Below, piece by piece: positions 5,921-8,079 of a DNA stretch of 64,000 nucleotides; the stretch's first letter is position 1; each line of letters starts with the position of its first letter. Both the position numbers and the translations under genes were made by a program. Origin of the DNA: Escherichia coli (GTDB taxonomy: Bacteria > Pseudomonadota > Gammaproteobacteria > Enterobacterales > Enterobacteriaceae); NCBI RefSeq assembly GCF_003018235.1, contig NZ_CP027437.1; one strand, given 5' to 3'. The notes beneath the pieces are model-generated. The model ran no database searches. It was not told the origin of the DNA and saw nothing but the letters and a program-made list of their open reading frames with translations.

Positions 5921-8079
5921 GCAGCAGACCCCTTATTCTTTTCCTGCAACACCACCCGTCGCGTCGTGGGTTCGCCCTGTTCACGCAAAATGGCCTCTTT
6001 CGCGCCATCCATCACAATCCGCCCCTGATCCATCACGATAATGCGGTCCACCAATTGCAGCATCGCCGTGCGGTGAGTAGCAATGACCAGCGTGCGATGC
6101 CCAATCCACTGTTTCAGTTGTTCGATTAAATGCGCTTCCGCCATTTCGTCCAGCGAGGCGCTGGGTTCATCGAGCAGCACGATATTGGGTTGAGAGATGA
6201 GCAGCCGCGCCAGCAGCAGCGTTTGCCGCTGACCACCAGAGAGGCCAAATCCCCCTTCCTGAATCATGTAGTTGAGGCCGTTTTTCTGCTTCTGCACAAA
6301 GGGCAGCGCCCCGCTGAGGGTTAATGCGCGTTCGATATCTTCATCGCTGGCCTCCGGCATCCCCATGGTGAGGTTTTCCCGCAGCGAACCAAAAAACAGT
6401 CGCCCGGTCTGGCTCAGCAGCCCCATGTCGCGGCGCAGATCTGCCGGATCAAGTTGCCCGATGCTGATGTTATCCAGTAGCACCTGCCCCTGCTGGGCGA
6501 TACGCATTCCGGCGAGCATTTGCAGTAGCGTTGATTTACCCGCGCCGTTGCGCCCGAGAATGGCGATTTTCTCTCCGGCCTGAATGTTGAGTTTGCCAAT
6601 CGCCACATCGGCAATCTTCTCTTCTTCGTCGTAATAAAATACCGCGTTGCTGAACTGATAATTGCCGTGCAGCACCGCTTTATGCACCAGTTTGCCGTGT
6701 TCCGGCTGATCCACCGGGCGCTTCATCAGTTCATCAAGGCCATTACGCGCTACTTTCGCCTGCTGCCAGCGCGAGAGCACGCCGGATATCTGCGACAGCG
6801 GCGCGATGGTGCGCGAAGCCAGGATCGTCGTCCCGACCAGCGCGCCGGTGGTCATGTCACCGTTCATTACCATAAAGCAGCCCACCAACAGCACCACCAC
6901 GTAGACGATGGTCTGCACTTCCTGGGTCCAGGTGAGCAGTAGCCCGGTGAGAAAACGTTGCTTCATACTGATGGACGAGGCCACGTCGTTGGTGTGGTTC
7001 CACTGATTCTGAAAACGCTGTTCGGCGCGCAGCAGCTTAATATCTTCAATCGACTGCACGGCTTCCACCAGCGTAGCGTTACGCACCGCCGACTCGCGCA
7101 TCCCTTCGTTCGCCAGCCGCGCCAGCGGGCGTTGTACCAGCAGGCCGGGGATCACCAATAACGGCAGCGCCAGCAAAACCACCAGCACCAGCCAGCCGCC
7201 AATCATCCACAAAATAAAGACAAACAGCAGGAAGAACGGCAGATCCGCCACTGCACCAATAGTGGTGGAGGTGATCAGCTCCCGAACCGATTCCAGTTCG
7301 CGGATCTGCGAGATAAACGATCCGGTGGATTTCGATCGCACGTTGTTTTTCAGCCGTAATGCGTGGCCAAAAACGCGATCCGAAATGCGCAGATCTGCCC
7401 GCTTACCAATCACATCGGAAAGGTGCGTGCGCACCATGCGCATACAGAATTCAAACAGGATCGCCATCATCACCCCGGCGAACAGCACCCACAGCGTCGG
7501 GTAGGACTGCGCCGGAACCACCCGGTCGTAAACCTGCATCGAGAAAATCATCGCCGCCAGCGCCAGCACGTTCGCCACCAGTGACGCCAGCATAATATCG
7601 CCATAGCGCCGCCAGTCTTTTAGCGAGAGATTCCAGAACCAGTTCGCCTGATACGGGCGAATGTAGTCATCCACCCGCGCGTCAGGGATGGCGCTGAGCG
7701 GGCGCAGCAGCGCCAGTTCAACGATTTTATCCTCAACATCCGCGACGTTAAGCGTAGTTTCCAGCCCTTCGTCACCGCTGAACTGAATGCTGATATTGTC
7801 GTGATTGTCACGGCGGGTGATCACGCCAACCTGCTGATTATCAAATACCGCGATCAGCGGCAGCCGCCAGGGGTTAAGCGAATCAGCGGAAAACTCCACC
7901 AGCCGCAGCCCCATTCCCAGTTGCCGCGCCATGTCGGTGAGCAACTCCTCCCGCTTGCTGTCGCGCTCCCAGTTGACGGTTGCGCGCACATTCTCCTGGG
8001 AAAAATCGAGGCGGTAATAACGCGCCACGGCGATCATCGCCTCCAGCCAGGCTTCCACGGACTGGGCATTTTTTTTCAT
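5917..8079 (-). CDS. Type I secretion ABC transporter (HlyB/LapB-like; N-terminal C39-like domain, TMD, NBD; 720 aa)
   Basis: Walker A GRNGAGKST, ABC signature LSGGQRQ, Walker B ILLDEP; six-TM core; about 130-aa N-terminal C39-like domain with no cysteine. Confidence 0.9.
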   Translation of the reverse strand: MKKNAQSVEAWLEAMIAVARYYRLDFSQENVRATVNWERDSKREELLTDMARQLGMGLRLVEFSADSLNPWRLPLIAVFDNQQVGVITRRDNHDNISIQFSGDEGLETTLNVADVEDKIVELALLRPLSAIPDARVDDYIRPYQANWFWNLSLKDWRRYGDIMLASLVANVLALAAMIFSMQVYDRVVPAQSYPTLWVLFAGVMMAILFEFCMRMVRTHLSDVIGKRADLRISDRVFGHALRLKNNVRSKSTGSFISQIRELESVRELITSTTIGAVADLPFFLLFVFILWMIGGWLVLVVLLALPLLVIPGLLVQRPLARLANEGMRESAVRNATLVEAVQSIEDIKLLRAEQRFQNQWNHTNDVASSISMKQRFLTGLLLTWTQEVQTIVYVVVLLVGCFMVMNGDMTTGALVGTTILASRTIAPLSQISGVLSRWQQAKVARNGLDELMKRPVDQPEHGKLVHKAVLHGNYQFSNAVFYYDEEEKIADVAIGKLNIQAGEKIAILGRNGAGKSTLLQMLAGMRIAQQGQVLLDNISIGQLDPADLRRDMGLLSQTGRLFFGSLRENLTMGMPEASDEDIERALTLSGALPFVQKQKNGLNYMIQEGGFGLSGGQRQTLLLARLLISQPNIVLLDEPSASLDEMAEAHLIEQLKQWIGHRTLVIATHRTAMLQLVDRIIVMDQGRIVMDGAKEAILREQGEPTTRRVVLQEKNKGSAA

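Follow-up and report, generated by a model that had tools for sequence, protein, structure and literature searches.

An ABC transporter gene adjoins the gene of a giant adhesin in a 64,000-nt stretch of the Escherichia coli genome, which is called the window here. The locus raises the question of what the N-terminal domain of this transporter does: whether it cleaves a leader peptide and, if it does not, to which class of non-cleaving domains it belongs. The transporter is 720 aa long, and positions 7650-8079 encode its residues 1-143. Its gene and the neighbouring adaptor gene comprise the following features.

5917..8079, minus strand: ABC transporter (permease/ATPase) of a type I secretion system (T1SS), assigned to the LssB/LapB subfamily (ORF, TIGR03375, ABC_membrane and ABC_tran domains)
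7699..8079, minus strand: predicted folded core of the N-terminal C39-like domain, residues 1-127 (AlphaFold2, Foldseek, profile matches)
7630..7698, minus strand: conserved linker, residues 128-150, with the motif PDARVDDYIRP (alignment A1)
4745..5920, minus strand: HlyD-family membrane fusion protein (TIGR01843, 330.3 bits; RefSeq annotation in loci L001 and L003)

The start of the HlyD-family gene overlaps the stop of the ABC gene by 4 nt. The linker joins the C39-like domain to the first transmembrane helix and was modelled by AlphaFold2 with a lower pLDDT (68-74) than the core; in alignment A1, R135 is invariant and D133 is found in at least 90% of the sequences. An antisense ORF at 7801-8328 (plus strand, 175 aa), opposite two well-supported genes, was taken as a chance ORF.

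Fold of the N-terminal domain

In the original prediction this stretch resembled a C39 domain in position and length, and this was borne out by profile, model and fold comparison. Pfam Peptidase_C39 (PF03412) matched residues 12-98 below its gathering threshold of 22 bits, scoring 16.2 bits with the full protein and 20.0 bits when the domain was searched by itself; the same profile matched 21 of 36 family members. A single-sequence phmmer search of the domain against the PDB gave only a marginal match (PCAT1 peptidase domain, E 0.036), and a family profile was needed for significance. The family profile matched 3B79 (1.4e-12), HlyB's C39-like domain (CLD) in 3ZUA (4.5e-7) and the PCAT1 peptidase domain (2.8e-6), and more weakly ComA (2.5e-3) and LahT (2.8e-3).

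AlphaFold2 modelled residues 2-127 as a compact alpha/beta domain with a mean pLDDT of 90.4 and elements running from H2-21 through E119-127. The top 23 Foldseek matches of this model in the PDB (E <= 1e-3) were all C39 or CLD domains, with TM of about 0.6-0.75; 3b79, 7n87, 3zua, 7sgr, 4ry2, ComA and LahT stood at the top, and the peptidase domains of PCAT1, ComA and LahT had E values of 1e-6 to 6e-4. This indicates that the N-terminal domain, as modelled, keeps the papain-like C39 fold.

The closest solved domain by both family profile and fold (Foldseek E 7e-7, target-normalised TM 0.75) was 3B79, the N-terminal peptidase C39-like domain of a Vibrio parahaemolyticus toxin secretion ATP-binding protein. 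It shares only 19% identity with the query and, like the query, lacks a Cys at the nucleophile column, where its aligned sequence has Pro. 3B79 is a structural-genomics entry, and we know of no functional study of it. The PCAT/AMS bacteriocin exporters PCAT1, ComA and LahT share the homologous fold, which in them too is fused to the N-terminus of a type IV ABC exporter. The C39 peptidases of such exporters carry a Cys-His-Asp triad and an oxyanion Gln and cleave the double-glycine leaders of small peptides, whereas none of the triad residues is found in the query.

Cysteine content and catalytic columns

The first approximately 130 residues had been said to contain no cysteine, and indeed residues 1-143 hold no Cys and a single His (H93). 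The whole transporter has just two Cys, C212 and C401. With a Cys frequency of 1.1%, an estimate for E. coli, a stretch of 143 residues would be free of Cys with a probability of about 0.21; with the transporter's own frequency, the probability is 0.67. The absence of Cys across residues 1-143 is thus not significant alone (P about 0.2-0.7). Nor is a Cys-free N-terminus a trait of the family: of 41 aligned N-terminal segments, extended by a few residues on the flanks, 32 contain one or more Cys at other positions. The informative test was made position by position, on the catalytic columns. The diagnostic feature is the aligned catalytic column and not the overall lack of cysteine.

8050..8052, minus strand: codon of Ala10, at the column of the C39 catalytic Cys (Tyr9 in HlyB; HMMER alignments)
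7825..7830, minus strand: codons of Val84-Gly85, at the catalytic His column (HMMER alignments)
7777..7779, minus strand: codon of Ser101, aligned with HlyB Asp100, the third triad position (HMMER alignment)
7846..7848, minus strand: codon of Val78, aligned with HlyB Trp77, the signature Trp of the CLD (HMMER alignment)

These residue equivalences rest on sequence and profile alignments; those to HlyB and to PCAT1 and those of the family profile are in agreement. A10 aligned with Y9 of HlyB (8dck) and with index 24 of PCAT1 (7n87), which is the catalytic Cys column and is Ala in the deposited 7n87 chain. Across 41 family sequences, this column holds P, A, S, G, D, V or N, and Cys in one relative only (P0101), found by reading the printed alignment rows. 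This Cys was not taken as a catalytic remnant, being a single case with no His partner. V84 aligned with HlyB H83 and G85 with the PCAT1 His, which leaves an ambiguity of one residue at the His column. The family has V, L or I and G or A at these positions, with no His in the 41 sequences; the Sakai orthologue has Ile84 where the window transporter has Val84. The pairing of S101 with HlyB D100 sits in an ungapped stretch of the HlyB alignment, and Ser occurs there in 21 of 41 relatives. Apart from the one Cys at column 10, the catalytic columns are free of Cys and His in 40 diverse relatives. These relatives came from an exhaustive phmmer search, as a word-indexed search with the 153-aa domain gave almost only E. 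coli fragments.

H93 was considered as a displaced catalytic His. In the AlphaFold2 model it lies in a hairpin turn between strands 84-90 and 95-100, and 20 of 41 relatives have Asp at its column, with His in the query alone, so a catalytic role was dropped.

Alignment to HlyB and to a C39 peptidase, PCAT1, therefore placed Ala10 at the Cys column and gave no conserved catalytic Cys/His pair, which had been named as the observation that would overturn the original prediction. The N-terminal domain is predicted to be non-catalytic, with all three triad residues missing, and the transporter should consequently be unable to process a double-glycine leader. An active C39 peptidase domain that processes a leader peptide would account for the C39 fold and the weak Pfam match, yet this match stays under its threshold, the domain is Cys-free, the nucleophile column is Ala, the His column has no His and the Asp column holds Ser. 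The alignment already refutes this reading, and we give it practically no chance.

Subfamily and substrate of the exporter

The original prediction placed the domain in the RTX/HlyB-type class, and this assignment did not hold. NCBIfam TIGR03375 (LssB) scored 836.8 bits against a cutoff of 693.1, and the match ran from residue 10 to 701 over profile positions 2-692 of 696, the N-terminal domain included. TIGR01846 (HlyB) reached only 389.1 bits against a cutoff of 725.55. In the literature, the signature of HlyB-type CLDs is His83 stacked on Trp77, the Trp being conserved among RTX-toxin transporters (PMC8277102). Both are replaced in the window transporter, by Val84 and Val78. Column 78 is E, Q or V in the family, and the 41 members have neither Trp at 78 nor His at 84. 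Smith et al. described LapB-like N-terminal domains, LssB among them, as a separate clade that has neither the Cys nor the Trp (bioRxiv 10.1101/198937). The window transporter has A10 and V78 at these two columns.

A CLD of the HlyB or RTX-toxin type, which would use the same surface as the HlyB CLD to bind the substrate's RTX repeats, was weighed against these results. The HlyB CLD (3ZUA; HlyB/HlyD complexes 7SGR and 8DCK) shares with the query the fold, the N-terminal position and the replacement of the catalytic Cys (Tyr9 in HlyB, Ala10 here). Both systems have an uncleaved substrate with a C-terminal signal, HlyB is the best full-length bacterial PDB match to the transporter (1.9e-80), the family profile matches 3ZUA, and the substrate contains an RTX block (PF00353). 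Nevertheless, the HlyB profile is failed where TIGR03375 passes, the H83/W77 pair is absent from the query and from the family, the closest solved domain is 3B79 and not 3ZUA, and the literature keeps LapB-like and HlyB-like N-terminal domains apart. We consider the HlyB-type reading unlikely. Judged from sequence, the transporter is of the LapB/LssB-like adhesin-exporter type.

The substrate was examined as a further indicator of class.

8083..29753, minus strand: giant BapA-related adhesin gene siiEA, the presumed substrate (NF047714 adhesin_SiiEA, 508.9 bits; ORFs)
8095..8403, minus strand: the adhesin's C-terminal target domain for type I secretion, VCA0849 subclass (TIGR03661)
8455..8559, minus strand: RTX nonapeptide repeat block of the adhesin (PF00353, 27.9 bits)
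29358..29741, minus strand: BapA_N prefix-like domain of the adhesin (PF22783, 70.5 bits)

The stop of siiEA lies 3 nt upstream of the ABC gene start. TIGR03661 scored 35.7 bits against a cutoff of 17.6 at residues 494-596 of the last 599 residues. A regular expression for the nonapeptide found three matches in the adhesin, two inside the RTX block and the third just downstream. The sequence TAAG was found by motif search at adhesin residues 97-100 (29454-29465), within the BapA_N prefix-like domain. No GG was present in the first 40 residues. The uncleaved C-terminal secretion signal that had been proposed for the adhesin agrees with the target domain, the RTX block and the missing leader. 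The substrate of the C39 class is small and has an N-terminal double-glycine leader; here it is a giant adhesin that exceeds 7000 residues and has its target domain at the C-terminus, which also speaks against an active C39 peptidase. By its sequence features, the adhesin fits a substrate of the LapB/LssB class: it is giant and carries a putative retention-type module at the N-terminus and a T1SS signal at the C-terminus.

The system resembles LapB of Pseudomonas fluorescens (LapEBC) and LssB of Legionella pneumophila in passing TIGR03375 and in having neither the Cys nor the HlyB-type Trp. Like LapA, SiiEA is giant and repetitive, and it has a TAAG-containing N-terminal retention-like domain and a VCA0849-type C-terminal target domain. 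It differs from LapEBC in that the adhesin is related to BapA and SiiE and is not LapA itself, and in that the gene order in the window is tolC-adhesin-ABC-MFP. A further difference is that lapD and lapG (c-di-GMP receptor and BTLCP protease) were not found in the flanks of the annotated orthologous loci, where ybaT, glsA and copA are the neighbours at one end and cueR is the neighbour at the opposite end.

Taken together, residues 1 to approximately 127 very probably form a catalytically dead, LapB/LssB-type C39-like domain in the exporter of SiiEA. The domain would be cytoplasmic and keep the C39 fold, with Cys changed to Ala10, His to Val84/Gly85 and Asp to Ser101. Together with the HlyD-family adaptor encoded next to it and a channel of the TolC family, the ABC transporter would export SiiEA, which would leave with its C-terminal target domain uncleaved and with no N-terminal double-glycine leader.

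It had also been predicted that the domain binds its substrate without cleaving it. The non-cleaving half of this claim stands, as every triad residue is missing from the alignment columns. The HlyB CLD reportedly binds unfolded RTX substrate in pull-down or NMR titration experiments. By analogy with HlyB, the domain may dock or chaperone the unfolded substrate, offer a contact site in the assembly of transporter and adaptor, or do both. This role, like substrate binding, is carried over from HlyB, whose binding-related Trp is missing in the query. We also entertain, as a doubtful possibility, that the LapB/LssB-type domain recognises the VCA0849-type C-terminal target domain or couples the retention plug at the N-terminus of giant adhesins to their export. 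The candidate recognition surface would then comprise W11, Y22-R23, S27 and W71-R72-L73-P74, together with D133 and R135 of the linker.

A vestigial remnant, drifting and functionless, would also have lost every catalytic residue. The domain changes faster than the remainder of the transporter between genera, and an exhaustive phmmer search of 1.84 billion cluster representatives with it gave only 152 matches at E <= 1e-3, which could be read in the same way. Against this, the window and Sakai domains differ by 24 synonymous and 3 conservative non-synonymous changes (pN/pS 0.038), and the domain is thus under strong purifying selection within E. coli. It carries a conserved, family-specific signature (W11, A19, S27, G55-L56, P74, D133, R135), and its AlphaFold2 fold is confident and compact. 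We regard a functionless remnant as highly improbable.

O-island 28 and class assignment

The locus is O-island 28 (OI-28) of enterohaemorrhagic E. coli (EHEC). The transporter is identical at 712 of 720 residues (99%) to Sakai ECs_0543, which is annotated as 'lapB'. Gene order and the identity of the island give hlyB28 (z0634) as the transporter's counterpart in EDL933. EHEC O157:H7 has the same chromosomal locus and gene order as the window. Its OI-28 T1SS consists of hlyB28/z0634, hlyD28, tolC28, rtxA28 and rtxB28, each of which is required for adherence and colonisation; deletion of hlyB28 lowers both, and complementation restores them (PMC12758282). For SiiEA, the literature offered EAEC genomics only and no functional data.

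29862..31218, minus strand: TolC-family outer-membrane component, counterpart of tolC28 (TIGR01844 matches on both fragments)

Compared with the intact 1356-bp gene in L002, this TolC-family gene has a 1-bp insertion near 30377 that splits it. Against the same intact reference, L002, the siiEA gene has lost 1 bp near 28779 and is thereby split into ORFs of 341 aa and 6892 aa; the O157 adhesin is split elsewhere, into 1461 and 5291 aa. Given these two frameshifts, the secretion system of the window strain may be non-functional, unless they are sequencing errors.

The finding is correct but ordinary, as a non-proteolytic domain of the LapB/LssB type has already been described. Its value lies mainly in annotation, in moving the OI-28/SiiEA transporter to the LapB/LssB adhesin-exporter class and out of the HlyB toxin-exporter class. 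In the OI-28 paper of 2025 the transporter took its name from HlyB and its N-terminal domain was not analysed (PMC12758282), so that this naming and the original prediction share the HlyB assumption. If the domain does recognise its substrate by a surface of its own, this would be a mode of substrate recognition distinct from that of HlyB, and OI-28 of E. coli would offer a genetically tractable system for it. The class assignment does not predict free secretion of the HlyA kind; it predicts LapA-like features, in that the adhesin would carry a retention module at its N-terminus and might be released by proteolysis at TAAG.

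The T1SS locus and its adhesin

The T1SS ABC transporter is encoded directly downstream of the giant adhesin, its substrate. The features of this region are as follows.

Features of the transporter and its neighbours (nucleotide positions in the window; domains in transporter residues)
5917-8079, minus strand: ABC transporter ORF, 720 aa (ORF listing)
7650-8079, minus strand: ABC transporter residues 1-143 (ORF coordinates)
8083-28761, minus strand: giant adhesin ORF, stop 3 nt before the transporter ATG at 8079
4745-5920, minus strand: HlyD-family gene, 391 aa, start overlapped by the transporter stop
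Residues 162-423: ABC_membrane domain (Pfam)
Residues 497-640: ABC_tran domain (Pfam)

The locus is EHEC O-island 28 (OI-28), flanked in E. coli by ybaT/glsA/copA on one side and cueR on the other, and it was present in full in 958 of 5426 complete genomes. The transporter was identical at 712 of 720 residues to its orthologue in the O157:H7 strain Sakai, ECs_0543, which already carries the annotation 'lapB'. Beyond cueR, on the strand opposite to the T1SS genes, a 600-aa ORF (1827-3629, plus strand) gave only weak coiled-coil-type matches (Rad50/SMC); the equivalent position in other E. coli genomes holds a shorter gene, annotated as 'YadA-like family protein' or as 'adhesin'.

The ABC and MFP genes of the window are intact. 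Compared with the intact E. coli reference locus, 1 bp is missing from a short run of C in the adhesin gene siiEA near 28779 (28728-28800). The gene is thereby split into an N-terminal ORF of 341 aa and another of 6892 aa. The TolC-family gene (29862-31218) has a 1-bp insertion near 30377 relative to the intact 1356-bp gene, resulting in two overlapping ORFs of 307 and 196 aa. Each frameshift could be a genuine pseudogenising mutation or could stem from a sequencing error. In other strains siiEA is disrupted elsewhere (1461 and 5291 aa in Sakai; flagged 'frameshifted' in AST215), and the two O157 adhesin pieces were handled as separate RTX proteins in the 2025 OI-28 paper (PMC12758282).

The adhesin matched the NCBIfam SiiEA model and contains a BapA_N prefix (PF22783) and an RTX nonapeptide block (PF00353). 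Its C-terminus carries the 'type I secretion C-terminal target domain' (TIGR03661, 35.7 bits vs. 17.6), and no GG occurs in its first 40 residues. Together these support export by an uncleaved C-terminal signal, as the original prediction had proposed. The sequence T-A-A-G was also observed at residues 97-100 (29454-29465), inside the BapA_N prefix, followed by a glycine-rich hydrophobic stretch, WLAGAAVGGGALGALLASGG. In LapA-like adhesins, this dialanine motif is where the periplasmic protease LapG cuts. Neither lapG nor lapD adjoins the T1SS locus.

A C39-fold domain without triad residues

The transporter's N-terminal domain is C39-related. Its Pfam Peptidase_C39 match (residues 12-98) was sub-threshold, scoring 16.2 bits where the cutoff is 22. 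When the 153-aa domain was searched exhaustively with phmmer, 152 proteins out of 1.84 billion cluster representatives matched at E <= 1e-3, from which a 41-sequence MAFFT alignment and an alignment of the 36 full-coverage matches (A1) were built. PF03412 was matched singly by 21 of the 36 A1 members. Against the PDB, the A1 profile matched 3B79 (1.4e-12), which comes from a toxin secretion ATP-binding protein in Vibrio parahaemolyticus and is described as its 'N-terminal peptidase C39 like domain', followed by the HlyB CLD 3ZUA (4.5e-7), the PCAT1 peptidase domain (2.8e-6), and ComA and LahT (both ~3e-3). The AlphaFold2 model from A1 had a pLDDT of 90.4 and a pTM of 0.80, and all 23 Foldseek matches at E <= 1e-3 were C39 or C39-like (top: 3b79, 7n87, 3zua, 7sgr). 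The predicted C39-like domain is thus borne out by profile matches and fold.

The register of the catalytic columns agreed across three independent HMMER alignments (HlyB, PCAT1 and the family profile). In the PCAT1 alignment, A10 was paired with an Ala of the deposited chain (index 24) that directly precedes Gly-Ala-Ala-Cys and corresponds to the mutated catalytic Cys21. The catalytic His was paired with G85 against PCAT1 and with V84 against HlyB. The HlyB alignment (8dck/7sgr) was gap-free from residue 10 to ~121, pairing A10 with Y9, V78 with W77, V84 with H83 and S101 with D100; HlyB Y9 replaces the catalytic Cys (PMC8277102). The 41 sequences carry P/A/S/G/D/V/N and a single Cys at column 10, V/L/I at column 84, G/A at column 85 and E/Q/V at column 78. 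The only His in residues 1-143, H93, sits in the modelled turn that joins strands 84-90 and 95-100; most relatives have Asp at this column. Therefore, the alignments revealed no conserved catalytic Cys/His pair, and the original prediction is right that catalysis is lost, with no triad residue at the aligned columns (A10, V84/G85, S101). The single Cys of column 10 aligns exactly with the nucleophile and belongs to P0101 (NKICWLNS), a distant 703-aa relative that lacks His at the His column. This sequence could be either an intermediate or a reversion.

As predicted, residues 1-143 contain no Cys, and the entire transporter has only C212 and C401. With a Cys frequency of 1.1%, which we estimate for E. 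coli, a stretch of 143 residues would lack Cys with a probability of ~0.21; with the transporter's own frequency the value is 0.67. At least one Cys occurs elsewhere in the domain in 32 of the 41 relatives, so a Cys-free domain is not a family property. The missing Cys is therefore weak as a bare statistic, and the diagnostic value sits in specific columns.

Transporter class

The HlyB/RTX-type class named originally is wrong; the transporter is of the LssB/LapB type. The HlyB model TIGR01846 scored 389.1 against a cutoff of 725.55, whereas the full protein passed the NCBIfam LssB model TIGR03375 (type_I_sec_LssB) with 836.8 bits (cutoff 693.1), the match starting at residue 10 and thus covering the N-terminal domain. 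A His83-Trp77 stack is a feature of HlyB-type CLDs, in which the Trp is conserved across the family (PMC8277102); in contrast, both equivalents are missing in our domain and throughout its family. LapB-like transporters, including LssB and PA1876, form a clade apart from C39 and HlyB-type CLD transporters, and their N-terminal domains have been reported to lack both the C39 Cys and the HlyB-type Trp (Smith et al., bioRxiv 10.1101/198937). The findings on the domain and its locus as a whole already stand in annotation (TIGR03375, PDB entry 3B79) and in the literature (the OI-28 paper and Smith et al.). The transporter is shown to be an LssB/LapB-type T1SS ABC exporter fused to a C39-fold domain without a triad residue.

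Selection and possible role of the domain

In the domain, the window differs from Sakai by 24 synonymous changes and by 3 conservative non-synonymous ones (V84I, I98V, V115I). The resulting pN/pS of ~0.04 is similar to that of the rest of the transporter (0.02), showing that the domain is under purifying selection. It could also be regarded as a vestigial remnant, but this low ratio and the conserved family-specific positions (W11, A19, S27, G55-L56, P74, D133 and R135 in A1) argue against that reading. The linker from the domain to TM1 (residues 128-150; 7630-7698) holds the family's most conserved motif, PDARVDxYIxP, with R135 invariant and D133 conserved in at least 90%; this segment may form an elbow helix or touch the adaptor.

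Deletion of hlyB28 (z0634), hlyD28, tolC28 or either adhesin ORF reduced adherence and mouse colonisation, and the defects of the three T1SS-gene mutants were rescued by complementation (PMC12758282). We equated z0634 with the window transporter gene from its place in the gene order and from the shared island. By analogy with the HlyB studies that PMC8277102 cites, the domain would act non-enzymatically. It may serve as a docking site or chaperone for the unfolded substrate on the cytoplasmic side, provide contacts within the ABC-MFP assembly, or both. Because the HlyB CLD-signature residues are not conserved, its putative binding surface probably differs from that of HlyB.
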